DNA from: Candidatus Ratteibacteria bacterium
GTDB lineage: Bacteria > Ratteibacteria > UBA8468 > MWAK01
DNA length: 64,000 bases
Assembly (NCBI GenBank): GCA_041653615.1
Contig: JBAZEZ010000003.1
Coordinates: forward strand, 1,213 to 65,212
Direction: 5' to 3'
The notes under the pieces were generated by a model. That model searched no databases. It was not told the DNA's origin and saw only the letters and a program-made list of their open reading frames with translations. The translations under genes were made by a program, and so were the position numbers. Below, piece after piece: positions 3,407 to 41,416 of this stretch (its first letter is position 1; each line of letters opens with the position of its first letter).

Positions 3407-3429
3407 CTGAATAATTTTAAAATATAACA

Positions 3430-9828: not shown

Positions 9829-10509
9829 GTGTTGATGAATTCAAACAAAGAACGCGTTTTAAAAAATAGAGTCGTCGTTTTTTTTGGTCCGCCCGGCGTA
9901 GGTAAAGGAACCATTACGACCCGATTGGCAAAAGAGTTCGGTTGCCGGACCATTTCTTCCGGAGACCTCCTGAGGGAGAACGTGAAGGGTGGAACGGACC
10001 TGGGCAACCAGGCAAAAAAGTTTATGGATTCGGGCGGCCTGGTTCCCGACCAGCTGGTTACCCGGATGGTAATGGCTGGCTTGGAGAAGACTGAAGGCTG
10101 CGTTTTTCTGGACGGTTTTCCGCGGACCATTGTTCAGGCTAAAGAACTGGCCGCTTATCTGGAAGAAAGAAATTGGAAACTCCTGGTAATTGACTTGGAA
10201 GCGGATGACGAGTTTCTGATGGCGCGTCTTACCGGTCGGCTTGTTTGCGGGAACTGCGGAGCTATCTATCATCAGGTTAATTTGCTCCCGAAAAAAGAAG
10301 GCGTTTGCGATGTTTGCGGCGGAGGTCTTTACCGGAGAGCGGATGACCATCCGGATGTTGTTGCTACGAGACTTTCGGTTTATCACCAGCAGTCGGCGCC
10401 GTTACGGGATTATTATCAAGAATTAGGTTTGATGGTAACGCTGCGCGGAGATAATTTTTTAGATAAAACGCTTGCCGCCGTGCGCGATGTTTTGGTAAAT
10501 ATTTCGTAA
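9829..10509 (+). CDS. adk: adenylate kinase (zinc-binding LID: CGNCG...CDVCGG)
   Basis: P-loop GPPGVGKGT; four-Cys LID; canonical position after secY. Confidence 0.93.
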   Translation: MLMNSNKERVLKNRVVVFFGPPGVGKGTITTRLAKEFGCRTISSGDLLRENVKGGTDLGNQAKKFMDSGGLVPDQLVTRMVMAGLEKTEGCVFLDGFPRTIVQAKELAAYLEERNWKLLVIDLEADDEFLMARLTGRLVCGNCGAIYHQVNLLPKKEGVCDVCGGGLYRRADDHPDVVATRLSVYHQQSAPLRDYYQELGLMVTLRGDNFLDKTLAAVRDVLVNIS

Positions 10510-16931: not shown

Positions 16932-17699
16932 ATGAAAGCCTATCTTCTTTCTGTATTCTTCCACCTACTTTTCGCCGGCCTCCTTTTTTTTCTGGCGGTT
17001 TCACCCGGGAAAGCCCTGCCTTCGGGGAGGGTTGACCAGGTTTTTTTGGTAACTTCAATACCGGTGGCTCCGATATCTTCCGTGTCGGCGGATGCGCTCC
17101 CCGCGACGCCCTCGGGCTCGATGAGTCGAGTTCCTGCAATTAAGCCGGAGAATACGATTGAGCCGGTACCGGTAAAGCCGGAAAAAAGCCTGGCGGAAAA
17201 ATTAGCAATGCGTTTGAACGGCGCAACGTCCGAAGTTTGGAATCACACGACGGCAAACCGGAGCGGAGAGCCCCGGGAACAATCCGGAACCGCAGCCGAG
17301 ACAGGGACGGGAGTTCCCGTAAAAGAAGGATTATCACCCGGTCAGACGCAAAGTTTGCCGAGCCAGGCTTCGGTATCAACCGGTGAAGGCGCAACCCGGG
17401 TGAAACCGGAGGAGGGTTTTTCAGACGAATGGTATCTTACCCTGCTTTCCCGGCGGCTCACCGAAAGATGGAATCCGGTGCGCGAAGGGATTGCGGTGGT
17501 AGCGAGGGAGGTTACCGTATCCTTCACGATAACCCGGGATGGTCGGATAAAAGACGTGGGTCTTACCCGCGCCTCCGGTAACCAAAGATTTGACCGTTCC
17601 GGCGTTACTGCGGTGGTTGAAAGCGATTTTTTGCCGCCTCTGCCGACAAGTTGGGGGAAAAAAGAATTGCAAATTTCCGTTCGTTTCCGGGAAAAGTAG
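16932..17699 (+). CDS. TonB-family energy transducer (N-terminal TM, Pro/Ser-rich spacer, TonB_C domain)
   Basis: 255 aa; C-terminal ...VSFTITRDGRIKDVGLTRASGNQRFDRSGVTAV... TonB_C-like. Confidence 0.7.
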   Translation: MKAYLLSVFFHLLFAGLLFFLAVSPGKALPSGRVDQVFLVTSIPVAPISSVSADALPATPSGSMSRVPAIKPENTIEPVPVKPEKSLAEKLAMRLNGATSEVWNHTTANRSGEPREQSGTAAETGTGVPVKEGLSPGQTQSLPSQASVSTGEGATRVKPEEGFSDEWYLTLLSRRLTERWNPVREGIAVVAREVTVSFTITRDGRIKDVGLTRASGNQRFDRSGVTAVVESDFLPPLPTSWGKKELQISVRFREK

Positions 17700-17710
17700 G
17701 AAAGTTTATT

Positions 17711-17974
17711 TGGACGTAGATTTACGCAGATAATCGCAGATACAGATTAAAGATTACTTTAATGTGGATATTTTCACGATATCACCAAGAAATAATTAGG
17801 AAGATAAAAGGCACGATACAGGCAAGGGCAATAAAGGTAAAACACGTCACACATAATTTTGAACCCCTACCATCCCAAAAGATATAATTTTTCATAATAG
17901 AATTACTTAAAAAAATACTCTTAAAAAATTATAGTTTAAGCTTTATCCCGTTGTTTCTGCGTACATCTGCGTCC
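17711..17974. mobile_element. MITE-like element bounded by inverted repeats GGACGTAGAT / ATCTGCGTCC (copy 1 of 3)
   Basis: AT-rich 264-bp segment between convergent gene ends; TIR and internal block GATAATCGCAGATACAGATTAAA shared with copy 3 at 30779-30894. Confidence 0.6.
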
Positions 17975-17984
17975 CAATAGTAAT

Positions 17985-18968
17985 TTATCTTGCGTCTTTA
18001 ACACACCTGAATCCCAGATTTGGTTCCGGCATTGTTCCCTTGAATTGCGCGTAGGAGGAAAGCTCGTTGGCTCCGTCTTCAAAAGATCCGCCCTTTACTA
18101 TTTTCCATCGTTTACTGTCGGAGGTGTAAGGAGTGGTTGTCCATTCCCGTACGTTTCCTACCATGTCAAATATGCCAAAAGGGCTGCGGTCATATGGAAA
18201 ACTTCCTACCGGCGTCGTGGTTCCCTTCCCCTGTCGGTTACCGTTGGCGTAAGTCTGAATATAATTGTTTCCCCAGGGGTAGATGAAGCCTTCGTTACCT
18301 CGGCTGGCTCGTTCCCATTCTTCTTTAGTCGGCAGTCTTTTTCCTACCCATTCAGCAAATTCTTTTGCATCCTGGTAAGAAACATTAACGACCGGATGGT
18401 TGGCTAATTCATTCGGGTAGATTCCGTTTTTCCAAATATTATACTTCGGGCCTCTGGGGTCAGCCGGTGGCTTATGTTCGGTTGCCCTGACAAAATCGGC
18501 ATACTGCCGATTGCTAATTTCGTATTTATCCATGAAAAAAGCCGGAACGTTGAGTTTAACCGACGTCCCATTTTCGTTCCAGCCCGCGATGTAATCTCCG
18601 GCCGGCACCAAGACCATACCTTCCGGAGAAGGCGCTTGTTCCGGATTTTTGGGCGCGTTACTCGAGGACGCGGAACCGCCTCCGCTGATACCGGGTAGCG
18701 CTAATCCCGGAGTCGGTTGCGGGACGGAAAGACCGTTTTCCGCGAGTTCGTTGGAACGGACGGAATTATGACCTAACCTCATTGTTTTTTTAGCTATGTT
18801 TTTGGCAATAATTATGATACCTAAAATAAGGCTCAAGGCAAGAATGATTAGAAGAAAAGAAGATATGATTGCGCGGAGCGGCGTTTTTTGTTTTTCGGAA
18901 GATTGGTTTGTTTTTGCGACCTTGGTTCCGTCTTCTTCGGAAATCAGGATTTTGGACATATACTTCAC
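17985..18968 (-). CDS. formylglycine-generating-enzyme (FGE-sulfatase / SUMF1) domain protein, membrane anchored
   Basis: 327 aa; N-terminal TM; MVLVPAGDY...YPWGN...GNVREWT...GFRCV motifs of the FGE-sulfatase fold. Confidence 0.75.
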   Translation of the reverse strand: MKYMSKILISEEDGTKVAKTNQSSEKQKTPLRAIISSFLLIILALSLILGIIIIAKNIAKKTMRLGHNSVRSNELAENGLSVPQPTPGLALPGISGGGSASSSNAPKNPEQAPSPEGMVLVPAGDYIAGWNENGTSVKLNVPAFFMDKYEISNRQYADFVRATEHKPPADPRGPKYNIWKNGIYPNELANHPVVNVSYQDAKEFAEWVGKRLPTKEEWERASRGNEGFIYPWGNNYIQTYANGNRQGKGTTTPVGSFPYDRSPFGIFDMVGNVREWTTTPYTSDSKRWKIVKGGSFEDGANELSSYAQFKGTMPEPNLGFRCVKDAR

Positions 18969-19130
18969 CTCCCTTTCTTTAGAGTGACCCGTGACAAAAT
19001 TTATTTAATATTATATCATTAAAGCGGGGGAAAAAGTCAAGAGAGATTTGCTTTTTGATGTCGGCACGGTATAAAATTTAAAGAACGGCGGTGTTTTAAA
19101 AATACGTTTATTTAATTTACCGTTTTTAAA

Positions 19131-20585
19131 ATGGCGGAAAAAGAACTGCTTCAAGAGCGGGAACGAAAACTGGGCGCGATTATTCAGCGCGGTACCTATC
19201 CTTACGGCGGTCGTTTTGTCCGAAGCGTCCCGGCTCGGGAAGTAACGGATGGTTCAGGCGATGTCCGGCTCGCCGGTAGAATTGTTACCATGCGTAATCA
19301 CGGAAAGGCCGCTTTCGCGGACTTGGAGGACCTTTCCGGTCGTATTCAGGTCTATTTTCAGCAAGATATTCTCGGTGTTGCTTTTGACCTCTATCAGTTA
19401 TTGGATATCGGAGATATCGTCGGTGTGTCCGGAGAGCCTTTTCGCACTAGAACCGGCCAATTAACCGTTAAGGCTAAGGAGTTAACGCTTCTTTCCAAAT
19501 CAAACCGGCCCCTTCCGGAAAAATGGCATGGGCTGAAGGATGTCGAAACCAGATTTCGTCAACGATATCTTGATTTGATTGCCAACCCGGAAGTGCGGGA
19601 AGTTTTTATCGCCCGCAGTCTTATCGTCAGTCGCATACGGCAACGCCTGAATGAGAGATGTTTTTTGGAGGTGGAAACGCCGATGATGCATCCGATCGCG
19701 GGTGGAGCAGAGGCCCGACCATTTGTCACCCATCATAACACTTTGGGTACGGATCTTTATTTGCGCATCGCTCCGGAATTATACCTGAAGCGGCTTTTGG
19801 TCGGCGGTCTGGAAAAAGTTTACGAAATAAACCGCTCTTTTCGTAACGAAGGAATTTCACCGCTCCATAATCCTGAGTTTACGATGCTGGAACTTTACGC
19901 GGCCTATACTGATTACAAAGGGATGGCCGAAATTGCCGAAGGGCTGATTTTGTCTTTACTGGAGGCCAATATTCCGGGTGTGAACGGTTCCGGAAATAAG
20001 TTAAATTATCAGGGGGTGGAAATTGACCTGTCTCCTCCCTGGTGTCAGGCGACTTTATTCGATTTGATGAGAGAGCATGCCGGTATCAACGATTTGCGTA
20101 ACCGGGGAGAATTGCTTGCCTGCCTTCAGAAAGAGAGGACCCCGCTCACCGGAACCGAAACAGCCTTTGACCTATTGGACACTCTTTTTAAAATAAGGGT
20201 TCAGCCGAAATTGGTATCGCCAGTTTTCGTGATGGATTACCCCCGGGAGATTTCACCTTTGGCCAAGAGTAAACCGGGGGAGGCGGAGACGGTTGAACGA
20301 TTCGAACTTTTTATCGCTGGGATGGAGGTTGGTAATGCCTACTCGGAATTGAACGATCCGGAAGAGCAGCGCCGTCGTTTTTTGGAAGAGGTTAAGAATA
20401 ATCGTCCGGACCGGCCCAAGGTGGTGGATGAGGATTATATTCTCGCTCTATCCTACGGAATGCCGCCGGCCGGTGGTCTGGGCATAGGTATCGACCGTCT
20501 GGTGATGCTGTTGACGAACCAGCCTTCCATCCGCGAAGTAATCCTTTTCCCGCTTCTGCGTTCCCAGGCGGTAATTTCTAAGTGA
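19131..20585 (+). CDS. lysS: lysine--tRNA ligase (class II)
   Basis: 484 aa; OB anticodon-binding domain plus class II motifs (FRNEGIS..HNPEFTMLELY; GGLGIGIDRLVM). Confidence 0.93.
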   Translation: MAEKELLQERERKLGAIIQRGTYPYGGRFVRSVPAREVTDGSGDVRLAGRIVTMRNHGKAAFADLEDLSGRIQVYFQQDILGVAFDLYQLLDIGDIVGVSGEPFRTRTGQLTVKAKELTLLSKSNRPLPEKWHGLKDVETRFRQRYLDLIANPEVREVFIARSLIVSRIRQRLNERCFLEVETPMMHPIAGGAEARPFVTHHNTLGTDLYLRIAPELYLKRLLVGGLEKVYEINRSFRNEGISPLHNPEFTMLELYAAYTDYKGMAEIAEGLILSLLEANIPGVNGSGNKLNYQGVEIDLSPPWCQATLFDLMREHAGINDLRNRGELLACLQKERTPLTGTETAFDLLDTLFKIRVQPKLVSPVFVMDYPREISPLAKSKPGEAETVERFELFIAGMEVGNAYSELNDPEEQRRRFLEEVKNNRPDRPKVVDEDYILALSYGMPPAGGLGIGIDRLVMLLTNQPSIREVILFPLLRSQAVISK

Positions 20586-20815
20586 TGGAAAAAAAACGAA
20601 GGGTACTTTGGCTGGAAAACGCTCTGATTATTATGGCGATTGCCGCTTTGTGGCCGGGTATTTTGCATTGGCCCGACCGGATAACCAGGCCGTTTCTTTA
20701 CCTGGCGTTGGTTACGATGGTGGTGATTGCCCGACGCCGGTGGCGTCGGCTGATGAACCTGAAAACGGCCGAAAGAGACGAAGTTAGGCACAAAGGCACA
20801 AAGGTAGAAAGTTGA
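20582..20815 (+). CDS. small two-TM membrane protein, hypothetical
   Basis: 77 aa; overlaps lysS stop (translational coupling); hydrophobic helices. Confidence 0.4.
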   Translation: MMEKKRRVLWLENALIIMAIAALWPGILHWPDRITRPFLYLALVTMVVIARRRWRRLMNLKTAERDEVRHKGTKVES

Positions 20816-21361
20816 ATGAGGCGGAAGATTGGTTCTTGGGCGAGAATCGTTTTTGTCTGCGGTTTTTTGATTTGGGTTGGTCTTTTTACCAATTTAATTC
20901 TTCGGCCGGGCGAGAATCGTCAGGCCAAAGAACAGGAAAAAAAAGGAGACGTTTTTTTCAATAACGGCAAACCAGAAACAGCTCTTGTTTATTGGCGCCG
21001 CGCCATAGCGTTGGCTCCAAAACAGCGGTCTCCTTACGAAAAGATTTCGGCTTATTATCTGTTGCAAGGTCAATGGTTAGAGGCGAGAAAAATTTTGGAA
21101 AGTGGTTTGACACAATTGCCTTCGTGTGCTAATCTTTACTTTAATTTAGGTTTGAGTTATTATTTTAGCGAAGATTATATTCGCGCAAGGGATAATTTTG
21201 GGCGCGTGACACAGCTTGATTTTTATTATCCCGACGCCCATTATTTTTTAGGGTTAATCTACCAAAAGGAAGGCAAGCCGGTAGAAGCGAATAAAGAATT
21301 TGTTCGAGAAGTGAACTTGGATCCGACCAGTCGTCGAGCTTGGAGTGAAATCCGAAAATAA
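20816..21361 (+). CDS. membrane-anchored TPR-repeat protein
   Basis: 181 aa; N-terminal TM then TPR-like helices (ALVYWRRAIALAP..., YFNLGLSYY, YFLGLIYQKEGK). Confidence 0.55.
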   Translation: MRRKIGSWARIVFVCGFLIWVGLFTNLILRPGENRQAKEQEKKGDVFFNNGKPETALVYWRRAIALAPKQRSPYEKISAYYLLQGQWLEARKILESGLTQLPSCANLYFNLGLSYYFSEDYIRARDNFGRVTQLDFYYPDAHYFLGLIYQKEGKPVEANKEFVREVNLDPTSRRAWSEIRK

Positions 21362-21374
21362 AATAAATTTAATC

Positions 21375-21485
21375 GGACGCAGATAAATACAGAAACTATC
21401 TGATAATACTTATAAAATAATCTTTAAAGTATTTGTAATTTTCTAAAAATTAATCTTTTAATCTATATCCGCGGTAATCTGCGTC
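21375..21485. mobile_element. MITE-like element with GGACGCAGAT / ATCTGCGTCC inverted termini (copy 2)
   Basis: 111-bp AT-rich unit immediately upstream of the 21500 CDS; same TIRs as 17711 and 30779. Confidence 0.55.
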
Positions 21486-21499
21486 CGTAATAATCTTTT

Positions 21500-24400
21500 A
21501 TGAATATTTTCAAAAAAGTCCGAACCATTTTTATTCTTTTCAGTTTTCTGTTTTTTTTCTCGGTTACCGCGCAATCCACGGTTACGGAAGACGTCGCCTA
21601 TTTTTCTTCCCTGACGTCCCGGGTGCCCGGTTATCCGGGCAATAAAGCGGCGGCCGATTATATTTCGGCTCGGTTCCGGTCGCTTGGTCTTCAGGAAATA
21701 AAAAGGGAGGCCTATTCCGTAACTGTTCCGGTGGAAGAGTTTTCCACCCTGGAGTATCAGGGGAGGAAGATAAAAATTTCGGCTCTCTGGCCTAATCATG
21801 TGCGTACTTCCACTCTGCCGCCGGATGGAATTACCGGAAACCTGGTTTACGGCGGGGATGGTTCCCTGGTCAATTATTCGGGGAATGATCTGAAAGGCGC
21901 GGTTGTCCTGTTGGATTTTAACTGTGGATTTCGTTGGATGGACGCCGGTTTGCTGGGTGCCCAGGCGGTTATTTTTATTGCGCCGGAGGACACGACTTTT
22001 TTTGAAGCCCGTCGGAAATTTTTGAGTATACCGTTGGATTTACCCCGCTTTTATGTTACGCGCGAAGATGCGGATTTTTTGCTTTCCAAATTGAGGCGGG
22101 CTCAAAATACCAAGGCCGTTAACTCAGTACCGGTGAAACTTTCATGCCGGCAGAGCTGGCAGAAGGCGCCGACGGAAAATATTCTGGGTTATATAACCGG
22201 CACCGACCCTAAATTACGAAATGATATTATCTGCCTTTCAGCCTATTACGATTCGAATTCAGTAGTTCCTTCCCTGGCGCCCGGTGCGGATCAGGCCAGC
22301 AGCATCGCCGGACTACTTGATCTTGCCGCTTACTTCAGCCAGAATCCTCCCCGGCGGACCATTCTTTTTCTGGCTAACGGCAGTCATTTTCAGACCCTGC
22401 GGGGTATGGGTGATTTTGTTAAGCGGCACTACCGCAAAGAAAAAACTTTTTTAACCAAAGAGATGGAACCGATTAATCTGAAGCTATTAATCGGGCTTGA
22501 ACTTTCCAGTCATTCCGACCTTTTGGCGACCTACCATAACAGCAGTGAATTATATGCCCAGCGATATTTTGCTCCGTTCGCCAAAAAATTCCTGGAATAT
22601 GTCCCGGCTGCTTTTTCGGGCAAACTGCTTAACGGCGTCAGTCCGGAAAGAGGAGTGGCTTTTTCCGCTTTTCTTCCGGAAGGTATTAGCACCGACGGTT
22701 CCCTTTCTATCCGTTTCGGGTTGCCTTCCCTTTCTTTTGTAACCGTTTATGACAACCGGCGATATTTTGACACTCCGGTGGATATTGCTGCCCGCGTTGA
22801 CATCGGAAAATTAACAACCCAGGTTGAACTATTGCGCCAGATGCTGTACCGGGCATTTAATGATTCGGAATTTTTTCCGGAGGCGGAGCTTGCGTTCAAT
22901 GATTCCGTGCGCACCTTAAGGGGCCGCATCGTTTCTTTTGACCCGAAGACCAGTTTTGTTCCCAATCAGCCGGTGGCGAACGCGATTGTTTGCCCCAGAT
23001 ATCTTTATGTTTCTTATCAAAACCGTAAGAGTGCCTACGGAGTCCGGGGTGAATATTTGGAGTTGACTGATGCAAAGGGACGTTTTACCATTAACCAGAT
23101 TTTTGCCAATTGGGGTATTCTTGAGGCTTTTTATCTAGACCCGGAAAACGGTCGGATTACGATGGCTCCGGACCGGGGCGTTAACGGCGCGGAAAATTAT
23201 CCGATGAATTTTACTTTTGACGCGCCGGTCAAGGACTGGTCGATTGTCCTTTTTAACTGCGTCAGTACCAATCTCTACGATTTTATCGACCCCAGATATT
23301 TAATCGGATTGGATAAGATGGATGTTTTTAATTCCGCCAATTCTATTCCGTCCGCTTACGGTTTTTCATATCTGGAACTCCGTTCTTGGGAGTGGTCTTC
23401 CGAGGTGGAGCCGGCGGCGGTTATTTATTCCGAGCCGGGCATGGAGATTAAAGTTGCCGGAGAAACCGGTCCCCTGGGGAAAAGGATACTGCTCTTGAAT
23501 TCTCCCGACAGCAAGACCAAGGCTGATTCGGAAGGCTTGGGTTATCCGTTGACTGACGATTCGTCTCTGCTTACGCTTACTCCCTACCGGGCCTGCCGGG
23601 ATATGATTAACCTCAACGATTACCGGATCAATAATTTCAAGCAGTTCGGTATTTCCAACGAAAGGCTGCTCACCCTTCACGAAGAGGCAAAAAAATGGTT
23701 TTCCGTCGCATCCGAAAACCTGGCTCAGTTTAACTGGTATTCTTTTTTGACCAACAGCCGGCGAGCGGTTGGTCTGGAATCACGGGCTTATCCGGACGTG
23801 CAGGCTACAACCAATGATGTAATTAAAGGTCTTATTTTCTATTTTATTATTCTCCTGCCCTTCGCTTTTTTCAGCGAGAGGCTCTTTTTTGGTTTTACCG
23901 ATATCCGGAAACAAATTGCCGGAATTTTTACCATATTTTTAGCCGTTTATTTAGCTTTGCGCTTTGTTCACCCCGGTTTTCGTTTGAGCAACAGTCCGGA
24001 GGTTATTTTACTGGCTTTTATCATTCTCGTTCTTTCCGTTTTGGTCATTTTTTTAATTGCCGGTAAGTTTGAAGAACAGATGCAGCGTCTGAAACGAGAG
24101 CGGGCCAAGGTTTACGAAACCGACGTGGGACGCATTGCCGCCACCGGAGTTGCTTTTAACCTTGGAATTGCCAATATGAAACGGCGGAAACTCCGTACCA
24201 CGCTTACGGCGATTACCCTGATACTGTTAACTTTTACGGTCATCTCTTTTACTTCCATCAAGAGTTACCTTAGTTTTAATCAGGTGGCCAGAGGGTATTC
24301 GCCCGCCTATGAAGGGTTGATGATCCGGGACCGTGCTTGGTCTCCTTTGGAAGAACTCGGCTATGAGTATGTCAAAAATGAGTTTTCCGAAAAGGCGGTT

Positions 24401-25891
24401 GTGGCTTCCCGTTCCTGGTTGTTGAATCCGACTATTGAAGATAAGACTTTTACTCGCGTGGCCTACGGAAAACAGGAGACTTTTGTTTCAGGGTTGTTGG
24501 GTTTGACAGTCCAGGAACCGTTGGTTACCGGTTTCGACCGGTTACTAGTGGCCGGAAAATGGTTTGGAACTGATACGGAAAAATCGGTTATTATTTCGGA
24601 AAATATGGCCAAGAACCTTAACTTCCCTGTTTCGGAACTTGGTCAAGGCCAGGTAAATATTTTCGGAGAGGACCTGAAGGTCGTGGGGATTGTTTCGGAT
24701 GCGAAACTTAACGATTACAGTGATTTGGACGGTGAGCGGTTGACGCCGGTTGATTTTGCGATGATGCCTAGCCAGGAGATGAGCAAATTCAAGATGGAAC
24801 ACGCCGCCAACGTGATGTCCGGAGGCGGAAACACCAAAACCTTTACTCATCAGGAAGCGGCCAACGTGGTCATCGTGCCGTTCCAGTTCCTGCGCCAGCG
24901 CGGAGGTACCGTCCAGTCAATGGCGGTTAAATTCAATCCCGGTTATGAAACTCGGAAAGAGATTGAGGATTTCGTTTCCCGGCTGGCAGTGACGATTTTT
25001 GCCGGGATTAACGGTAAGACTTCGGTTTATTCGTCTCTTGGATTAACTTCTTTTTCCGGAATAGGGAATCTCTTTATTCCCATCCTGATTGCCAGCTTGA
25101 TTGTTCTCAATACCATGATGGGCGCGGTTTATGAACGTATCCGGGAAATCGGTATTTACAGCAGTGTCGGTTTGGCGCCCAGTCACATCGCCGCTCTTTT
25201 CTTCGCGGAAGCCTGCGTCTATTCGGTTCTGGGCGCGGTGGCCGGTTACCTGTTAGGCCAGGTGGTTTCCAAGGCCCTCCTGACGGCTGGTCTGCTGAAA
25301 GGTCTGACGCTGAACTATTCCTCTCTTTCCGCGGTTAGTTCTACCATCATTGTTATGGCCGTGGTTTTTATTTCCACTATTTTCCCGGCCCGTAAGGCTT
25401 CGCAGATGTCTGTTCCGGATGTTACGCGGCGGTGGGTTTTGCCTAAGCCGGACGGAGACGCCTGGGTTTTTGGTTTTCCATTTACGGTCGGAGAAGGCGA
25501 AGTCCTGGGTTTAATGACTTTTTTGCGTGATTATTTTTCTTCCTATTCGATTGAGGCGGTTGGTTATTTTTATACCGCTGATAACAAATTATTTGAAGAG
25601 ACCGGTCCAAAGGGTAAGTCCTATGTGACTTCTTGCCGGGTGTATTTGGCGCCGTTCGATTTGGGCGTGAGCCAGCAGTTTAAACTTTCCGCGTTTCCGG
25701 CCGGGGAGTTTGGATTTTACGGAATAGAAGTCCGAATGGAACGGGAAAGCGGGGAGGGAAGTGACTGGCAACGGTTGAATCGGAGATTCCTCGACAGCAT
25801 CAGGAAGCAATTTTTAGTCTGGCGGACGATAAGTAAGGAGATTAAAGAAGATTACCGGCAAGAAGGTGAAAAGGAATTGAAGAATGGATAA
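21500..25891 (+). CDS. large fusion protein: secreted M28-peptidase-like/PA domain (catalytic residues apparently substituted), then a MacB/FtsX-type permease module and a C-terminal cytoplasmic domain
   Basis: 1463 aa; signal/TM; M28-like block with GADQASS in place of GADDNASG and YYDS in place of AHLDS; FtsX signature (MKRRKLRTTLTAITLILL plus three C-terminal TM helices IYSSVGLAPSHIAALFFAEA...). Confidence 0.65.
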   Translation: MNIFKKVRTIFILFSFLFFFSVTAQSTVTEDVAYFSSLTSRVPGYPGNKAAADYISARFRSLGLQEIKREAYSVTVPVEEFSTLEYQGRKIKISALWPNHVRTSTLPPDGITGNLVYGGDGSLVNYSGNDLKGAVVLLDFNCGFRWMDAGLLGAQAVIFIAPEDTTFFEARRKFLSIPLDLPRFYVTREDADFLLSKLRRAQNTKAVNSVPVKLSCRQSWQKAPTENILGYITGTDPKLRNDIICLSAYYDSNSVVPSLAPGADQASSIAGLLDLAAYFSQNPPRRTILFLANGSHFQTLRGMGDFVKRHYRKEKTFLTKEMEPINLKLLIGLELSSHSDLLATYHNSSELYAQRYFAPFAKKFLEYVPAAFSGKLLNGVSPERGVAFSAFLPEGISTDGSLSIRFGLPSLSFVTVYDNRRYFDTPVDIAARVDIGKLTTQVELLRQMLYRAFNDSEFFPEAELAFNDSVRTLRGRIVSFDPKTSFVPNQPVANAIVCPRYLYVSYQNRKSAYGVRGEYLELTDAKGRFTINQIFANWGILEAFYLDPENGRITMAPDRGVNGAENYPMNFTFDAPVKDWSIVLFNCVSTNLYDFIDPRYLIGLDKMDVFNSANSIPSAYGFSYLELRSWEWSSEVEPAAVIYSEPGMEIKVAGETGPLGKRILLLNSPDSKTKADSEGLGYPLTDDSSLLTLTPYRACRDMINLNDYRINNFKQFGISNERLLTLHEEAKKWFSVASENLAQFNWYSFLTNSRRAVGLESRAYPDVQATTNDVIKGLIFYFIILLPFAFFSERLFFGFTDIRKQIAGIFTIFLAVYLALRFVHPGFRLSNSPEVILLAFIILVLSVLVIFLIAGKFEEQMQRLKRERAKVYETDVGRIAATGVAFNLGIANMKRRKLRTTLTAITLILLTFTVISFTSIKSYLSFNQVARGYSPAYEGLMIRDRAWSPLEELGYEYVKNEFSEKAVVASRSWLLNPTIEDKTFTRVAYGKQETFVSGLLGLTVQEPLVTGFDRLLVAGKWFGTDTEKSVIISENMAKNLNFPVSELGQGQVNIFGEDLKVVGIVSDAKLNDYSDLDGERLTPVDFAMMPSQEMSKFKMEHAANVMSGGGNTKTFTHQEAANVVIVPFQFLRQRGGTVQSMAVKFNPGYETRKEIEDFVSRLAVTIFAGINGKTSVYSSLGLTSFSGIGNLFIPILIASLIVLNTMMGAVYERIREIGIYSSVGLAPSHIAALFFAEACVYSVLGAVAGYLLGQVVSKALLTAGLLKGLTLNYSSLSAVSSTIIVMAVVFISTIFPARKASQMSVPDVTRRWVLPKPDGDAWVFGFPFTVGEGEVLGLMTFLRDYFSSYSIEAVGYFYTADNKLFEETGPKGKSYVTSCRVYLAPFDLGVSQQFKLSAFPAGEFGFYGIEVRMERESGEGSDWQRLNRRFLDSIRKQFLVWRTISKEIKEDYRQEGEKELKNG

Positions 25892-27842
25892 AAAAGAAAA
25901 CATATTCCCGCAGCCGGATGGTTTCGAAAGCGGTTTTAATATCAAAACTTTGTTCGCGGCTCTTTTTGTCGGTTTTATTATGCTGCCGGCCGGTATTTAT
26001 ATGGGTTTGATTGCCGGAACCAGCTTGGGTGCCGCCGCCCAGTGGGTAACGCTCATCCTTTTTGTCGAAATAGCCAAAAGGTCTTTTGTTCAGTTGCGGC
26101 GTCAGGAGATTTACCTCATTTTTATCGTGGCAAATTCCCTGATGATGGTGGGCGCGGCCGGTATTACGAACGGCGGCGCGTTCAGTTCGTTAATCTGGGA
26201 ACAGTATTTTGTTCAGTCGCCTTACGCTAAAGCTTTCGGACTTTCCAGTCAGATTCCGCTCTGGGCTGTTCCGCCGGCCGGCAGCGCCGCGCTCATCCAG
26301 CGCACCTTTTTGAGTAAAGTCTGGCTTGTTCCGATACTCATCCTTTTAGCAACCCAGATATTGAGCCGGGTCAATGCTTTTACGCTCGGATATTATTTTT
26401 TCCGGGTTACCAGTGATTTTGAGCGGCTGGAATTTCCGATGGCTCCGGTGGCGGCGGAAGGGGTTTGGGCGCTGACCGATCTTTCCGCTAAAAAAGATAC
26501 CAATCGCTGGCGCACCTTTGTTACCGGAGGCATGATCGGCATTATTTACGGTGTTTTTTATGTTTTCATTCCCACTTTTACCGGGTTGGTAATGGCTAAG
26601 CCGTTTACGCTTATCCCGATTCCTTTTGTCGATTTCACCAGCCAGGTAAGCTCCATTTTTCCGGCTTCGGTTCTGGGTTTTATGACCGACCTGGGCAACG
26701 TTTTTGCCGGTTTTGTCCTGCCTTTCTGGGTAGTGCTGGGTACCTTTGTCGGTTCCGTCGGGGCGCAGACTATTGCCAACCCGATTTTGTACAAGCATAC
26801 GGATTTTTTGAAAACCTGGCAGCCGGGAATGGGCGCTATCCCGGCCTATACGTCCACTACGATTGATTTTTGGATAAGCGTCGGAATCGGTCTGGGTATT
26901 ACGGTTTTAATTTTGAGTATCATCTCGGTTATTTCCAAAATTAGACAGAGAGAAAAGAAAACTCAAGCCGCAACTAAAATACCGGCGAACCGGGGTGATT
27001 CTCCCCTGGTGGTTATGCTGGGAATTTGGGCTCTTTCCACCCTCGTCTACGTGGTTCTTTGCCACGTGCTGGTACCTAAGTTTCCGTTACCTTTGATATT
27101 GTTTTTCGGTTTTATCCTAACCCCGGTGCTCACGTATATTTCCGCCCGGATGTTCGGCATAACCGGGGTTGCCAGCGGAATTTCTTTCCCCTACCTGACG
27201 GAAGGAACCTATATCCTTTCCGGCTACAAAGGCGCGGATATCTGGTATATGCCCTTGCCTTATTTCAATCACGGAGGAATGGCTCAAGGTTTCAAGCAGA
27301 TGGAGTTGCTTAAGGTGCGTTTTACGGATTGGTATAAGACCGAATTTATGGCTTTAGGGATAATGCTTTTTTGTAGTTTTCTTTTCTGGTCGGTCATCTG
27401 GAAGATGGGGCCGATTCCTTCGTCAACCTATCCTTTCGTTCAGCGGATGTGGCCGATGATGGCTATTCCGCGGGCGCTCTGGGTTTCCTCTACCGTTCAT
27501 GGGGGCGCCACCTGGCTGCTGGATTCGATTAAGGGTTCAATAATCGGCTGGAGCGCGGTCGGAGGTTTGGCTACGGCGGGAATCTTAGCCCTCTGTAAAG
27601 TACCAATTTCATTTTTTTACGGGATAGTAGGCGGAATTCCAATGTTACCGCATTACACTATTCCGATGTTTTTCGGAGCTCTATTAGGCAAATTTTTCTT
27701 TGCCCGGCGCATCGGTGTTAAAGAATGGCAGAAGATGACGCCGCTGCTTCTGGCCGGTTACGGTTGCGGTATGGGATTGGCCGGGGCGGCTTCAGTTGCC
27801 GTTGCCCTGATCGCCAAAACGGTGTTTCAATTGGTTTATTAA
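25884..27842 (+). CDS. polytopic integral membrane protein (about 14-16 TM), hypothetical; translationally coupled to the upstream fusion protein
   Basis: 652 aa, overlaps upstream stop by 8 nt; Gly/Trp/Pro-rich TM helices; family not recognised. Confidence 0.55.
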   Translation: MDKKENIFPQPDGFESGFNIKTLFAALFVGFIMLPAGIYMGLIAGTSLGAAAQWVTLILFVEIAKRSFVQLRRQEIYLIFIVANSLMMVGAAGITNGGAFSSLIWEQYFVQSPYAKAFGLSSQIPLWAVPPAGSAALIQRTFLSKVWLVPILILLATQILSRVNAFTLGYYFFRVTSDFERLEFPMAPVAAEGVWALTDLSAKKDTNRWRTFVTGGMIGIIYGVFYVFIPTFTGLVMAKPFTLIPIPFVDFTSQVSSIFPASVLGFMTDLGNVFAGFVLPFWVVLGTFVGSVGAQTIANPILYKHTDFLKTWQPGMGAIPAYTSTTIDFWISVGIGLGITVLILSIISVISKIRQREKKTQAATKIPANRGDSPLVVMLGIWALSTLVYVVLCHVLVPKFPLPLILFFGFILTPVLTYISARMFGITGVASGISFPYLTEGTYILSGYKGADIWYMPLPYFNHGGMAQGFKQMELLKVRFTDWYKTEFMALGIMLFCSFLFWSVIWKMGPIPSSTYPFVQRMWPMMAIPRALWVSSTVHGGATWLLDSIKGSIIGWSAVGGLATAGILALCKVPISFFYGIVGGIPMLPHYTIPMFFGALLGKFFFARRIGVKEWQKMTPLLLAGYGCGMGLAGAASVAVALIAKTVFQLVY

Positions 27843-27879
27843 CATAACGGCATTAACATCATTATGTTATCCCGCGTCA

Positions 27880-27960
27880 CAATGCTGTCATTCCCGCATG
27901 TATTAGGCGGGAATCCACACCCCTGAAGACTGGATTCCCACTTACTATCCGTGGGAATGA
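27880..27960. repeat. paired palindromes ATTCCCGCATGTATTAGGCGGGAAT and GGATTCCCAC...GTGGGAATG upstream of birA
   Basis: 28-bp core ATTCCCGCATGT..TA.GCGGGAATCCA also present at 63045-63072. Confidence 0.5.
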
Positions 27961-28523
27961 CACCGAATATAGTGCGGTTTAAAAAAAGAGGAAACATCTA
28001 CGTCTTTTCCGAACTTTCATCCACGCAGGATAAGGCCTGGGAACTTGTTTCCGATGGCGTTTCTTCCGGTTCCCTGATTATTGCCGGCGTTCAGACTGCC
28101 GGTAGAGGACGGCAAGGCAAAATTTGGTATTCCCCCAGGGGTAGTTTGTGTTTTTCCCTCGTTTTATTCCCGGTTTCCTCCGGGCAGTCCGGCGGGATTA
28201 CGATTTCTGCCGCAAGGGCGCTTCAACTTGCTTTAAAATCCGCGCTGAATTTAGAAACCCGGCTTAAACTTCCCAACGACCTCTATTTTCAAGAAAAAAA
28301 ATTGGCCGGAATTATTTTGGAGGTGAAACAGAAAAAAGCGGTTTTAGGCGTCGGACTTAATGTTAATTGTCCGGCCAATTCCTGGCCCGTCGGAGTTCAG
28401 GCAGTTAGTTTAAAAGAGATTCTAAACAGGCGGGTCAGTCGTTGCGCCATTCTCTTCGCTTTTCTGAACAATTTTCAAAAAGAAACTTTGACATTTACTC
28501 TCTTTGAAGATAAAATATTGTAG
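27951..28523 (+). CDS. birA: biotin--[acetyl-CoA-carboxylase] ligase catalytic domain (BirA-like, no N-terminal HTH evident)
   Basis: 190 aa; GRGRQGKIW and KLPNDLY...KKLAGIILE BPL motifs. Confidence 0.8.
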   Translation: MGMTPNIVRFKKRGNIYVFSELSSTQDKAWELVSDGVSSGSLIIAGVQTAGRGRQGKIWYSPRGSLCFSLVLFPVSSGQSGGITISAARALQLALKSALNLETRLKLPNDLYFQEKKLAGIILEVKQKKAVLGVGLNVNCPANSWPVGVQAVSLKEILNRRVSRCAILFAFLNNFQKETLTFTLFEDKIL

Positions 28524-28573
28524 TGGTGTGATTTGTCGTACAAATCGTCAATACCAAAAGGGGGTGAAATAGC

Positions 28574-29176
28574 ATGAGAAAAAATGGATTTACCCCGTTT
28601 AGAGGTTTATCGCTAATGGGGTTTACGCTGATTGAACTTTTAGTTGTTATTGCCATCATTGCCATTTTGGCGGCTATGATTTTACCGGCGCTCTCGCGAA
28701 CGCGGGAAAGCGCCCGGCGCACCACCTGTCTCAATAATTTAAAACAGTTAGGATTGGCTGTAAATATGTATATTCAGGACAACAGCGAATGTTTACCGGG
28801 TATGCAAGAATGGGTTACTACGCTTGGCTCTTATGTTTCGGATAATGACCAGGTTTTTTCTTGCCCCAGCGATCCGGATAAAACCAGTTCCACCTCTTAC
28901 GCCATAAACAGTTATGCGTCCGGTGAGAAGATTTCCGCGATTAGCCATTCCTCAACTTTTCCGGTCTTTTTTGACCGCAACACAACCGGCGCAAGTTCAT
29001 CCTATTTTACCGGATGTCCGCCAACCGCGCCGAGTGGCCCCAGCGATCCATTTTATTATGTTTTTTGTTCCAACCGGCATACCAATGGCGCGAATTTTTT
29101 GTTTCTGGACAGTCACGCAACCTGGCTTTCGAATCCGGAAAGCGTAAGTTCCGATATTCTAAAGTTTGAGCCTTAA
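28574..29176 (+). CDS. prepilin-type N-terminal cleavage/methylation domain protein of the DUF1559 (H-X9-DG-like) family
   Basis: 200 aa; [25 protein letters not shown] leader; C-terminal [13 protein letters not shown]; family abundant in Planctomycetota, Verrucomicrobiota, Lentisphaerota and Omnitrophota. Confidence 0.8.
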
Positions 29177-29177
29177 A

Positions 29178-30761
29178 ATGGTCCTGCCCCGTCTGGTCGA
29201 TTTTGATTCGCAGACTGTTCCGGAGGAGGACACGGAAGTATTGGTCATCGGCAGCGGCGCGGCCGGTCTTTCCGCCAGCCTGAGCGCGGCCGGAGCCGGC
29301 CGGCGTGTTATGCTGGCGGCAAAAAGCGGTTTTCTGGATACGGCCTCTGACCTGGCCCAGGGCGGAATCGCGGTTGCCCTTTCCAAGGACGATTCTCCGG
29401 AAAAACATTTTCAGGATACGCTTAACTCCGGTTCGGGATTGGCTGACCCTGAATCCGTTAAAGTGCTGGTCCGGGAAGGTCCGGAAATAATCAGGGCGTT
29501 GCTTGCCTCCGGAGCAATTTTCACCCGGGATGGTTCCGGACTTGTTTTTACCCGGGAAGGCGGTCACTCGTTACCGCGCATTATCTATGCTTCCGGAGAC
29601 CGCAGCGGCGCGGAAGTAATTCGTACCCTCTCACCTCTTGTCCTCCAAAACCGTCGGATTGAAATCAGGGAAAAATATTTTTTGATAGACCTTATTACTT
29701 CGGGAAATTCAGTTATCGGCGGGCTTTTTTTTGAAGGGGAAAAAAAGATTCCTTTTTTTGTCCGGGCCGCCAGCGTGGTTTTGGCAACCGGCGGTCTCGG
29801 CCGGTTGTTTCAGGAGACGACCAATCCCACCATTTCTACCGGAGATGGTATGGCGGCGGCTTATCGCAGCGGGGCAACTCTGCGGGATTTGGAATTTGTT
29901 CAATTTCATCCAACTGTTTTTTACGTGGCCGGCGCCCCGCGTTTTTTGATTTCCGAAGCGGTTAGAGGCGAAGGCGCGGTCTTGGTCAACGACCGGCAGG
30001 AACATTTTATGCGTTCCTACCATCCGGACGCGGAGCTTGCTTCCCGCGATGTGGTTTCCCGGGCTATTCTGGACCAGATGAAACGCCAGGCCGCCCGGAA
30101 CGTTTATCTGGATTGTCGTTCTATCGGCGCCAATTTCAAGAAGCGGTTTCCCTCCATTTACGCTATGGTCCAGCGTTTTCGGATAGACCCGGCACATGAC
30201 CTTATTCCGGTTCGTCCGGCAGCCCATTACATGATGGGTGGAGTTAAGACTAATTCTAGCGGGGCGGTGGAGGATTTGGAAAATCTTTTTGCCTGCGGAG
30301 AGGTTGCCTGCACCGGTGTTCATGGCGCCAACCGGTTGGGCAGTAATTCGCTTCTGGAGTGCCTGGTTTTTGGAAACAGGGCCGGGTCTGCGGCTGCCGC
30401 CGGGAAGCATATTTTCCGGGGCCGTGTTCAGTTCACCCGGCGCTGGAAAGATTTCCATTTGGATGTGACCGATATCAAGAGGTCACTTAACGCGTTGGTC
30501 TGGCGTCATTGCGGCATAGAGCGGGAAGGTAACGACCTGAAGTTTGCTCTGGAGAAACTAAAAGAATGGCAAAGTTATGCTCTTTCCGCTCGTTTTTTTG
30601 ATTCTTCCGGTTGGGAAACGCAAAATATGCTTTTGCTTGCCGGTTTGATTGCGCAAAGCGCTTTGGAAAGGACTGAAAGTCGGGGTGCGCATTTCCGTAC
30701 CGATTTCCCGGAAAGAGATGATAAGGAATGGCTCAGGCATATCGACCGAAAGATTAACTAA
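29178..30761 (+). CDS. nadB: L-aspartate oxidase
   Basis: FAD-binding VLVIGSGAAGLSASL, RSGATLRDLEFVQFHPT; ATG immediately after upstream TAA (the track's 29166 start is a TTG). Confidence 0.85.
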   Translation: MVLPRLVDFDSQTVPEEDTEVLVIGSGAAGLSASLSAAGAGRRVMLAAKSGFLDTASDLAQGGIAVALSKDDSPEKHFQDTLNSGSGLADPESVKVLVREGPEIIRALLASGAIFTRDGSGLVFTREGGHSLPRIIYASGDRSGAEVIRTLSPLVLQNRRIEIREKYFLIDLITSGNSVIGGLFFEGEKKIPFFVRAASVVLATGGLGRLFQETTNPTISTGDGMAAAYRSGATLRDLEFVQFHPTVFYVAGAPRFLISEAVRGEGAVLVNDRQEHFMRSYHPDAELASRDVVSRAILDQMKRQAARNVYLDCRSIGANFKKRFPSIYAMVQRFRIDPAHDLIPVRPAAHYMMGGVKTNSSGAVEDLENLFACGEVACTGVHGANRLGSNSLLECLVFGNRAGSAAAAGKHIFRGRVQFTRRWKDFHLDVTDIKRSLNALVWRHCGIEREGNDLKFALEKLKEWQSYALSARFFDSSGWETQNMLLLAGLIAQSALERTESRGAHFRTDFPERDDKEWLRHIDRKIN

Positions 30762-30778
30762 AGAGAAGCAAATTAATT

Positions 30779-30894
30779 GGACGCAGATTACCGCTGATAA
30801 TCGCAGATACAGATTAAACATTGCTCGAAAAGTACCTTAAAATTATCTTTCATCCTTGATCTTTATCCGGCTGTTTCCGCGTATATCTGCGTCC
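30779..30894. mobile_element. MITE-like element with GGACGCAGAT / ATCTGCGTCC inverted termini (copy 3)
   Basis: 116 bp between nadB and trpE; internal GATAATCGCAGATACAGATTAAA shared with copy 1. Confidence 0.6.
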
Positions 30895-41130: not shown

Positions 41131-41217
41131 GGAGAGGTGCCTGAGTGGTTGAAGGGGCACGATTGGAAATCGTGTAGCCTGCAAGGGCTCGTGGGTTCGA
41201 ATCCCACCCTCTCCGCC
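41131..41217 (+). tRNA. tRNA-Ser (anticodon GGA), type II with long variable arm
   Basis: GGAGAGG acceptor 5' arm pairing with CCTCTCC; D-arm TGCCTGAGTGGTTGAAGGGGCA; anticodon loop TTGGAAA; long extra arm; GTGGGTTCGAATCCCAC T-arm; discriminator G plus encoded CC. Confidence 0.85.
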
Positions 41218-41254
41218 TTCGTCCGCTGAAGCGGACTTCGGCGGACGCAGTCCG
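41199..41254. repeat. direct repeat copy A (tRNA-Ser 3' half plus 39 nt downstream)
   Basis: 56-bp string GAATCCCACCCTCTCCGCCTTCGTCCGCTGAAGCGGACTTCGGCGGACGCAGTCCG, repeated at 41417. Confidence 0.8.
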
Positions 41255-41416
41255 CCAAGAGGTTTAGAAGCTGTTTTTGCGAAGGTGAGTAAGCTTTCTT
41301 GAAGGTGAGATTCGAGGGGAGCGAAGTCAGGCGACGCGACAAGAAGGAGCGTTGCCAGCGGGTGGCCTAGTCGAGACGTAGTGAAGTCGAGACAGCCGAA
41401 TCCCACCCTCTCCGCC

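Follow-up and report, generated by a model that had tools for sequence, protein, structure and literature searches.

REP sequences and REPINs are short repeats in inverted pairs, which are dispersed as hairpins between genes, flank a small enzyme gene (RAYT) in inverted orientation, and leave no target-site duplication. Free-standing homing endonuclease genes have no terminal inverted arrays, are usually specific for a single target site, and give rise to no dispersed gene-less hairpins. Intervening sequences of 23S rRNA are located in rRNA helices, and their small ORF encodes a four-helix-bundle protein. Foldback transposons are eukaryotic and far larger. No PD-(D/E)XK protein of the size considered here is known to act as a transposase. 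Correia elements (NEMIS), which are MITEs of Neisseria, were reported to invert in place (review PMC10969869), and a survey of PD-(D/E)XK proteins lists the function of the GxxExxY/PDDEXK_3 family as unknown (PMC3424549). A literature search on the decamers described below, on GxxExxY/PF13366/TIGR04256, and on MITEs of Omnitrophota/Ratteibacteria found no published description.

In the window (the whole stretch of DNA analyzed here, 64 kb), three segments are genuine copies of a small repeat that looks mobile and matches the gene-less end module of a GxxExxY cassette. They share many features with prokaryotic MITEs such as Correia elements: a length of ~100-260 nt, an AT-rich interior without coding function, terminal inverted repeats, hairpin formation, an intergenic location, polymorphism among strains, and changes of orientation at a fixed site. 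Unlike these MITEs, they show no target-site duplication, their termini are arrays of 10-bp sub-repeats and not a single inverted repeat, their sequence is unrelated, and their gene-bearing relative encodes a PD-(D/E)XK nuclease instead of a DDE or other known transposase. REP/REPIN-RAYT systems resemble them in having inverted-pair hairpins between genes, repeats that flank a small enzyme gene, and no target-site duplication. However, the enzyme here has a PD-(D/E)XK fold whereas RAYT is an HUH/Y1 transposase, the repeat unit is a 7-nt core with a 10-bp period, and the cassette has apparently spread horizontally across phyla and into archaea. Like a free-standing homing endonuclease gene, the cassette is a small, sense-oriented nuclease gene wedged between conserved co-directional genes without target-site duplication, but it also has terminal inverted arrays and dispersed gene-less hairpins; the likeness is one of gene context only. 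Intervening sequences of 23S rRNA also have a small ORF between stem-forming inverted repeats and a patchy distribution suggesting horizontal transfer, but the elements here are flanked by protein-coding genes, and their product is a nuclease. Foldback-type transposons have terminal inverted repeats made of tandem short sub-repeats, as here, although size, sequence and associated proteins are all different. The features of the three copies and their neighboring genes are as follows.

17712..17974, L-to-R orientation on the + strand: copy 1, 263 nt
17712..17752, +: L-type end of copy 1, GGACGTAGAT TTACGCAGAT AATCGCAGAT ACAGATTAAAG, three decamers and a relic of the cassette 5' coding start
17764..17896, no strand: extra AT-rich cargo (~133 nt) that splits copy 1
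17943..17974, +: R-type end of copy 1, TTATCCCGTTGTTTCTGCGTACATCTGCGTCC
16932-17699, + and 17985-18968, -: convergent neighbors of copy 1, TonB-like gene and FGE-sulfatase gene, respectively
21375..21486, L-to-R orientation on the minus strand: copy 2, 112 nt
21375..21409, +: R-type end of copy 2 (degenerate), GGACGCAGATAAATACAGAAACTATCTGATAATAC
21458..21486, +: L-type end of copy 2, reverse complement reads GGACGCAGATTACCGCGGATATAGATTAA, one decamer deleted
21361 and 21500: neighbors of copy 2, stop of a TPR gene and start of the M28 peptidase-FtsX gene, respectively
30779..30894, L-to-R orientation on the + strand: copy 3, 116 nt
30779..30819, +: L-type end of copy 3, GGACGCAGAT TACCGCTGAT AATCGCAGAT ACAGATTAAAC
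30863..30894, +: R-type end of copy 3, TTATCCGGCTGTTTCCGCGTATATCTGCGTCC
30761 and 30905: neighbors of copy 3, stop of a NadB-like flavoprotein gene and start of trpE, respectively

The termini of the elements are arrays of two or three decamers, nnnCGCAGAT, with a 10-bp period and inverted between the two ends; the heptamers of the window copies fit C[AG]C[AG]GA[TG] with a 9-10-bp period and two or three units per end. These arrays lengthen the terminal inverted repeats GGACGCAGAT / ATCTGCGTCC to ~30-40 nt. The first-pass annotation had described three segments bounded by the same 10-bp inverted termini. The segments exist and their ends are indeed inverted, but the ends are decamer arrays and not single 10-bp repeats, copy 1 starts at 17712 instead of 17711, copy 2 ends at 21486 instead of 21485, and the left terminus of copy 1 is present as GGACGTAGAT with one mismatch, not as an exact match. 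The internal block GATAATCGCAGATACAGATTAAA, given there as common to copies 1 and 3, was found at 17729 and 30796, the interiors were confirmed to be AT-rich (GC 0.10-0.28 vs 0.48 for the window), and the gene context was also correct, with one copy between convergent genes and two directly upstream of peptidase-FtsX and trpE. The intergenic spacer between operon genes is almost entirely occupied by the elements.

Exact GGACGCAGAT occurs five times in the window against 0.10 expected, a number reached in none of 100 shuffles, and all five occurrences are paired termini of elements. When one mismatch was allowed, six occurrences were found against 2.8 expected, and this bare count alone is not significant. 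A profile HMM trained solely on copies from outside the window matched precisely the three segments and nothing else in it, with E-values of 1.5e-25 for copy 3, 4e-15 for copy 2, and 3e-13 and 8e-12 for the two halves of copy 1 (model positions 1-68 at 17712-17783 and 51-123 at 17898-17974). The orientation of copy 2 is opposite to that of the other two, as its profile scores were 51-65 bits on the minus strand vs 13-17 on the plus strand. Twelve further copies without a gene, which have the same pair of end types, were found at different metagenome loci. With three copies in the 64-kb window and no fewer than 14 distinct loci in the lineage, the proposal that these are members of a dispersed family of small non-coding inverted-repeat elements was borne out.

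The decamer arrays are not restricted to this lineage. They flank GxxExxY genes (PF13366/TIGR04256, PD-(D/E)XK) in many phyla, including ANME-1 archaea. A genome scan for two decamers revealed at least 119 loci in many phyla; among those listed, the GxxExxY gene at the arrays is complete in seven, and in eight the arrays enclose internally deleted remnants of it. An ORF at L092 matches PF13366 (E 9e-33) and TIGR04256 (E 9e-36). Internally deleted intermediates occur in other lineages (L044, L063, L005, L072, L082), and the remnant at L044 keeps HMM positions 1-39 and 97-135. The association was also found when loci were chosen by the protein alone, blind to the motif: in this small sample, nine of the 12 loci had arrays of this or a related heptamer, and the other three had no clear arrays (related direct repeats at L124, none at L127 and L172). 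Inverted arrays at both ends surround the GxxExxY genes at L140, L148, L166, L168, L125, L126, L169, L170 and L171. Among the loci picked by protein alone, L140, L148, L166 (an ANME-1 archaeon) and L168 have the canonical order of array, ORF and inverted array. Distant, plasmid-borne family members have inverted arrays of the related heptamers CGCGGAT, CACGGAT, CACAGAG and CGCGAAG. The heptamer varies along with the protein subfamily, as expected of a protein and its DNA site. At cyanobacterial loci the arrays are one-sided with no GxxExxY gene within 230 nt, suggesting that the arrays may have, or have gained, other contexts. No other cargo genes were found between arrays 450-3000 nt apart, and a protein-based scan of viral contigs gave no confirmed relative. 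We are highly confident that the window segments belong to this repeat family and are related to GxxExxY cassettes.

A complete cassette is ~0.45-0.5 kb long and consists of a gene for a ~130-aa nuclease and the inverted arrays on either side of it, whose 10-bp units have the core CGCAGAT; the start codon is often inside the 5' array. The gene is sense-oriented in tiny spacers between co-directional host genes, e.g., lptF/lptG, fabD/fabG, hemB/radical-SAM and cysNC/tauE, and was co-directional with both neighbors at all 11 annotated loci. At fabD/fabG, Sphingomonas parapaucimobilis and S. paeninsulae are 72% identical, which is too divergent to fix the exact cassette junctions. In the lineage of the window, arrays are present at three places in the cassette: at the 5' side, directly downstream of the stop codon (in direct orientation), and far 3', where the 5' end recurs as an inverted copy. 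The post-stop array and the far-3' inverted array together are exactly a window-type element. At L158 the cassette is followed by a window-type module, and the protein encoded there is P0121. Its gene is on another contig of the ENA assembly that contains the window sequence, and its NCBI accessions are in the window's protein series in two MAGs (MFA5393753 beside MFA5393143 and MFA5393152 in one, MFA7328706 beside MFA7328537 in the second). Judging from MAG binning and this accession series, the window's own genome appears to carry a GxxExxY cassette with the same arrays on another contig, and its PD-(D/E)XK product is a putative partner of the window elements. The family HMM had no match in any frame of the window, which indicates that the window elements are derivatives and not cassettes. 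As for a cognate transposase gene elsewhere, a gene-bearing relative apparently exists in the same genome, but it encodes a ~130-aa GxxExxY nuclease and not a recognized transposase.

The AlphaFold model of the GxxExxY protein (pLDDT 89.8) has its best PDB structural matches in Cas4 SSO0001, lambda-exonuclease-like enzymes and Hjc resolvase; a search of the PDB by sequence gave no match. Conserved residues of the family, which comprises 12,715 clusters at 50% identity, are E39, D78, E88, K90, Q102 and Y106. PADLOC detected only marginal Cas4 similarity and PHROGs nothing, indicating that the protein is not a listed defense or phage family. In the arrays, the 7-nt cores are invariant and the 3-nt spacers are non-complementary, and a strict 10-bp period was found in 148 of the 189 spacings of ≤40 nt. 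Each copy folds into a long, imperfect hairpin (z-scores -3.6 to -8.3). The covariation test on the alignment found 0 compensatory pairs and is therefore uninformative on RNA structure. The arrays are conserved at the level of sequence rather than structure. The heptamer arrays are probably recognition sites of the GxxExxY nuclease, which would bind or cut them and thereby drive mobility. Gene-less modules would then persist and spread in trans by means of a nuclease encoded elsewhere in the same genome, possibly by break and repair or by recombination, without creating a target-site duplication.

Comparison with related Omnitrophota/Ratteibacteria genomes (L120-L123, L135, L163, L165) revealed turnover at orthologous sites. 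At site 2, L120, L122 and L123 lack the element, and L121 has it in the orientation opposite to that of the window. L121 and L122 are 99.5% identical over 20 kb, and their one large difference is at this site, 137 nt vs 2 nt. Site 3 is empty in L120, where the genes overlap, has a decayed copy in L123, and has a different repeat in L121 and L122. Site 1 is occupied in all relatives compared (L163, L165, L135), with conserved termini and unrelated interiors, and the orientation at this site differs between L163 and L135. Element-free orthologous sites have spacers of 3-16 nt or overlapping genes. Thus, empty sites and strain polymorphism, which the first-pass annotation suggested looking for, do exist, including in a nearly identical pair. 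Target-site duplications were also looked for: no consistent flanking direct repeat was found at any of the ~15 copies inspected (3 window and 12 metagenome). Between occupied and empty alleles, no clean cut-and-paste junction and no direct repeat were seen; the occupied L121 allele has 14 extra non-array bases on one side compared with the empty allele, and part of the flanking DNA seems to move together with the element. The MITE reading of these segments is therefore partly supported, as they are small, non-coding, inverted-repeat elements in dispersed copies with insertion polymorphism, and lack the duplication. As in REPINs, hairpin doublets are dispersed in intergenic DNA, but the flanked gene belongs to PF13366/TIGR04256 with a Cas4/lambda-exonuclease/Hjc-like fold, and not to the RAYT type (HUH/Y1, IS200/IS605-like).

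Could the gene-less elements be scars that mark former insertions of full cassettes? The gene would have been lost by recombination or slippage between the 5' and post-stop direct arrays, and the hairpins would never move by themselves. Deletion in the layout at L158 and L133 (array, gene, array, inverted array) would yield exactly a window-type element, and the internally deleted intermediates in other lineages are consistent with such loss. However, L121 and L122 differ by a gene-less unit only, and the gene-less copies have a common conserved interior without coding relics past the first few codons. Gene-less copies also outnumber gene-bearing ones by 14 to 1 in the subfamily sample, a ratio biased by a scan pattern that favored gene-less forms. 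We consider this origin unlikely. It is also rather improbable that the elements are host-domesticated REP-like repeats under selection for a role at the RNA or DNA level (RNase III sites, mRNA stabilizers, terminators or nucleoid-protein sites), with GxxExxY as a domesticated maintaining enzyme, as RAYTs are for REPINs. The hairpins, the nearly complete filling of spacers between operon genes, and the site-1 termini, which are kept across lineages with only 70-75% protein identity while the interior turns over, agree with it, and this terminus conservation could be due to selection on a host function instead of selfish spread. On the other hand, compensatory changes are absent, the spacers are non-complementary, no terminator-like site was called at the elements, orthologous sites work without any element, and orientation relative to flanking genes is variable. 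In addition, the decamers hardly differ between bacterial phyla and ANME-1 archaea, at ~70% protein identity, a pattern indicative of a self-contained unit that spreads horizontally.

Regulation of the neighboring genes was the other question. Arrays of a short conserved motif at one-helical-turn spacing are typical of cooperative protein binding, and two copies are directly upstream of genes, as sites of a host transcription factor (operators or iterons) regulating the peptidase-FtsX gene and trpE would be. However, the two upstream copies have opposite orientations, relatives have the same promoters without the element, and the same arrays also follow genes or surround GxxExxY ORFs in archaea and in unrelated phyla. 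Since arrays lie upstream, downstream and between convergent genes, the operator alternative that had been set against the MITE reading was not seen, and we regard it as highly improbable. The suggestion that the elements could supply promoters found no support: in the promoter and terminator scan, copies 1 and 3 contained no more than weak promoter-like matches attributable to AT content, no terminator-like site was called, copies 2 and 3 have opposite orientations, and some orthologous sites lack the element. Small RNA genes or cis-regulatory RNA leaders, such as a trp leader, are suggested by the stable predicted folds and by the position of copy 3 immediately 5' of trpE. This explanation has almost no likelihood, because no covariation was detected, trpE of L120 overlaps the upstream gene and leaves no room for a leader, the element also occurs in unrelated gene contexts, and Rfam covariance models found nothing relevant in the window (gathering and permissive thresholds) or at eight cassette loci. 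Taken as a whole, we lean modestly towards the reading that the segments are non-autonomous, gene-less, MITE/REPIN-like derivatives of the cassette on which the GxxExxY nuclease acts.

These results connect the GxxExxY/PDDEXK_3 family to a repeated DNA motif, a cassette-like habit of insertion into operons, and gene-less hairpin derivatives. They also suggest a testable function for the family, which may recognize or cut CGCAGAT-type arrays, and would account for intergenic repeats of a kind that occurs in many uncultured lineages, ANME-1 archaea among them. We tentatively propose, as a possibility that still falls short of being the probable case, that GxxExxY genes and CGCAGAT-type arrays form an unrecognized class of minimal mobile element: ~0.45 kb, with a single ~130-aa PD-(D/E)XK nuclease and tandem heptamer sites in inverted arrays as ends, inserting into operon spacers without target duplication, crossing phylum and domain boundaries, and spawning gene-less hairpins. 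Mobility driven by the nuclease, if real, would mean that MITE/REPIN-like repeats can arise by a new enzymatic route. On the practical side, such repeats break metagenome assemblies and cause strain-level structural variation beside housekeeping genes.

Three smaller observations follow. The exact sequence of TrpE as called here has no database record, since the start codon of the recorded gene is a different one. The L-type end of copy 1 can be compared with the 5' end of the cassette at L158, GGACGCAGATTACCGCAGATTTACAGGATTTTAAA. Copy 1 is a normal copy interrupted by the extra cargo, which is missing from the site-1 elements of relatives and contains the only ORF of copy 1, which is hydrophobic, 37 aa long and on the minus strand (17895..17782).

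The best-supported reading of the three AT-rich elements in the window is that they are non-autonomous derivatives of GxxExxY cassettes, in which a PD-(D/E)XK nuclease gene of ~130 aa (PF13366/TIGR04256) lies between inverted decamer arrays. The copies were placed and oriented by sequence and profile scores.

Element copies in the window
17712-17974, + strand: copy 1, between convergent TonB-like (+) and FGE-sulfatase (-) genes
21375-21486, - strand: copy 2, between a TPR gene and an M28 peptidase-FtsX gene
30779-30894, + strand: copy 3, between a NadB-like flavoprotein gene and trpE

The first-pass annotation had described three segments with common inverted termini; all are present, with a one-base correction needed at two of its end coordinates. 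Its neighbouring genes were recovered for all three copies, as were the internal block common to copies 1 and 3 (at 17729 and 30796) and the AT-rich interiors (GC 0.10-0.28 vs 0.48 for the window). The elements take up nearly all of their spacers, leaving 10-18 nt on each side. There are five exact GGACGCAGAT matches in the window where 0.10 would be expected, all of them element termini; copy 1 has GGACGTAGAT as its left terminus. It is otherwise of the usual type, except that an unrelated AT-rich stretch of ~133 nt (17764-17896) splits it. This cargo holds a 37-aa hydrophobic ORF (MKNYIFWDGRGSKLCVTCFTFIALACIVPFIFLIISW; 17782-17895, minus strand), which is a gene call in one public assembly; relatives have elements without it at this site.

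Single 10-bp terminal repeats were ruled out, since each end holds two or three decamers: the ends are arrays of nnnCGCAGAT with a 10-bp period, inverted between ends. Across all DNA gathered, same-strand CGCAGAT spacings of up to 40 nt were exactly 10 in 148 of 189 cases. There are two end types with consistent differences: L-type, GGACGCAGAT TACCGCAGAT AATCGCAGAT ACAGATTAAAG, and R-type, which reads inward as GGACGCAGAT RTACGCAGAA ACA.CCGGATAA. These end types, together with the profile scores, assign copies 1 and 3 to the + strand and copy 2 to the - strand. A detection profile made from copies outside the window only matched the three element places in 64 kb and nothing else (E-values 1.5e-25, 4e-15, and 3e-13 with 8e-12). 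All copies are predicted to form long imperfect hairpins (z -3.6 to -8.3), with 7-nt cores paired and 3-nt spacers as internal loops. In a 13-copy alignment the arms are invariant and the middle varies, with no compensatory pairs; conservation therefore lies in the sequence.

A two-decamer scan of species-representative genomes found at least 119 loci. The matches listed come from bacteria (Anaerolineae, Thermodesulfobacteriota, Latescibacterota, Omnitrophota, Planctomycetota, Verrucomicrobiota, Acidobacteriota and cyanobacteria) and archaea (ANME-1/Methanophagales), and ~35 loci among them have paired inverted termini 60-408 nt apart. The 408-nt pair, in L092, encloses an ORF of 129 aa with matches to PF13366 PDDEXK_3 (E 9e-33) and TIGR04256 GxxExxY (E 9e-36). 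With the family HMM, a full GxxExxY gene was found at the arrays of seven loci among the matches listed, and internally deleted remnants between the arrays of eight (e.g., L044, HMM 1-39 plus 97-135; L063, HMM 1-49 plus 117-135). Many loci that look solo are likewise genuine arrays, or hairpins whose arms vary. A subfamily-specific metagenome scan added 12 copies of 100-160 nt at distinct loci, all of them gene-less and none with a target-site duplication. In cyanobacteria (L041, L075, L078, L105, L107), one-sided arrays of 3-4 CGCAGAT decamers sit in a conserved ~100-nt repeat (...ATTAAACGCAGATGGACGCAGATAAACGCAGATAATTTTGTACTTTATTAGAC...), with no inverted partner or GxxExxY gene within 230 nt.

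Arrays also occur at loci picked only for protein similarity, which argues against the array-gene link being a selection artefact. Twelve such motif-blind loci comprised four close homologues and eight distant members, the latter on plasmids or chromids, and nine of the 12 had inverted heptamer arrays. In all four close homologues, GGACGCAGAT-nnnCGCAGAT precedes the ORF and ATCTGCG-nnn-ATCTGCGTCC comes after it, and the ATG is often within the array: L140 (between hemB and a radical-SAM gene), L148 (between cysNC and tauE), L166 (an ANME-1 archaeon, after ccmE) and L168 (canonical array-ORF-inverted-array layout). Inverted arrays of related heptamers flank five of the eight distant members, and the heptamer varies with protein subfamily: CGCGGAT in Gemmatirosa, CACGGAT in Treponema, CACAGAG/CGCAGAG in Bacteroides and Bernardetia (CACAGAG in the latter), and CGCGAAG in Sphingomonas. 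One distant member, on a Fusobacteria plasmid (L124), has related direct repeats, and arrays are absent at the other two. On a Prevotella nigrescens chromid (L172), a divergent GxxExxY gene without heptamer arrays is flanked on both sides by a 15-bp direct repeat, GATTTGGAAAGATTT, which covers the downstream gene start. GxxExxY genes are co-directional with both neighbours at 11 of 11 annotated loci and sit in very short spacers (e.g., lptF|lptG, fabD|fabG). This suggests read-through expression and selection for non-disruptive placement.

The protein family has 12,715 clusters at 50% identity (E <= 1e-3), and bacterial and ANME-1 members are ~70% identical. The AlphaFold model is confident (pLDDT 89.8); its nearest solved folds are Cas4 SSO0001 (E 1.6e-4, TM 0.54), lambda-exonuclease-like enzymes and the Hjc Holliday-junction resolvase. 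Conserved E39, D78, E88, K90, Q102 and Y106 fit a PD-(D/E)XK site with a QxxxY motif. A 2012 superfamily survey lists PDDEXK_3 as of unknown function, with mixed bacterial/archaeal clades (PMC3424549). We found no published description or Rfam family for the arrays or their gene link; the link seems to be new and can be tested directly.

A likely partner gene was found for the window copies. One of the 12 metagenome copies, L133 (= L158/L159), sits immediately 3' of a complete GxxExxY gene that lies between lptF and lptG. Its order is 5' array, ORF, stop codon and window-type module, with the R-type end adjoining the stop and the L-type end outermost; this outer end is an inverted copy of the cassette 5' end, first conserved codons included. 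In each of two MAGs, the NCBI accessions of the cassette protein (P0121) and of the window FGE-sulfatase and TrpE belong to a single series, and both contigs are in one ENA assembly. Therefore, judged by binning, the genome of the window very probably encodes a GxxExxY nuclease.

Homologues of TrpE and FGE-sulfatase assign the window to the Candidatus Omnitrophota/Ratteibacteria lineage. Syntenic loci of relatives (L120-L123, L161-L165) revealed three different histories at the three intergenic sites, indicating gain or loss, replacement and inversion over short evolutionary scales. A comparison with empty sites, proposed in the first-pass annotation, succeeded at site 2 (TPR | peptidase), which is empty in L120, L122 and L123 (spacers of 3-16 nt). 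L121 carries an element there, oriented opposite to copy 2. Over 20 kb, L121 and L122 share 99.5% identity, and their sole large difference is here: 137 nt vs 'CA'. This allele comparison shows no duplication, and the junction is not that of a simple insertion: on one side the element brings along 14 non-array bases. At site 3 (nadB | trpE), the genes overlap in L120, so no element is present; in L123 the copy has decayed but its R-type end can still be recognised, and L121 and L122 have a different, GC-rich repeat.

Site 1 (FGE | TonB) is occupied in L163, L165 and metagenome contig L135, with the same terminal arrays and unrelated interiors. L135 and L163 have identical flanks and opposite element orientations. 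The L135 copy (3249-3440) differs from that of L163; after it come 19 nt similar to the right flank of the L130 copy and, beyond them, an orphan TCTGCGTCC terminus. From these sequences, it looks like a replacement by recombination carrying donor flank. In L163 (~3560-3670), a CGCAGAG/CTCTGCG hairpin of 9-bp period, the heptamer type flanking the Bacteroides gene, is nested in a CGCAGAT-type element, and thus one array family was inserted into another. The L165 interior is a GTCATTCCCGC hairpin (~3560-3620). This type also forms the interior of an element in a Thermodesulfobacteriota MAG (L018, ~3120-3190), and the inverted pair GTCATTCCCGC...GCGGGAATG recurs at window 27886-27962.

The heptamer arrays are probably recognition sites of the GxxExxY nuclease. 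Both this putative role and derivation from cassettes are argued for by the strictness of the helical period, cores that are conserved while spacers are free, heptamers that co-vary with protein subfamily, and arrays travelling with the gene across phyla and domains. Break-and-repair or recombination would fit the spread to new sites better than staggered-cut transposition, because there is no target duplication, the junction is untidy, orientation flips and donor flank was apparently carried over (L135 vs L130). The MITE reading of the first-pass annotation holds in that the elements behave as MITEs or REPINs do, but target-site duplications, looked for at the junctions, are absent and a known transposase is lacking. 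Thus, we do not file them as classical MITEs.

Among the alternatives, in-place scars of GxxExxY gene loss are less likely: the deletion remnants between arrays and the L158 layout would fit them, but L121 and L122 differ by a gene-less unit only. Host-domesticated REP-like hairpins are a little less likely again, as element orientation relative to the flanking genes is not fixed and orthologous sites without an element exist. Operators are very improbable, as one copy lies between convergent genes and the two upstream of the peptidase and trpE genes have opposite orientations. RNA genes, for which the stable predicted folds would speak, are the least probable: Rfam gave no match, and in L120 trpE overlaps its upstream gene.

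Other repeats were seen in the window. A second small family, AATTGTAGTTGCCGAGCTTGCTCGGCG...GTAGGGGAGGGGCTCTGTCCCCTCCC (55625-55698 and 60161-60234), takes the nadB|trpE site in L121/L122 (~9840-9990) and is nested in a CGCAGAT element of metagenome contig L128. Three CCTCTCCCC...GGGGAGAGG units form GC-rich hairpins at 42-nt spacing (54874-55025). A 1157-aa ORF (43452-46925) contains about 26 tandem 126-bp units (43552-46875) of 60-76% identity, with two pairs at 97-100%, and therefore encodes a protein of 42-residue repeats. The 3' end of a tRNA (41131-41215) and ~50 nt downstream (41198-41265) recur at 41397-41464 (91% identity), an att-like duplication with a spacing of 199 nt that may be left over from an integration event.
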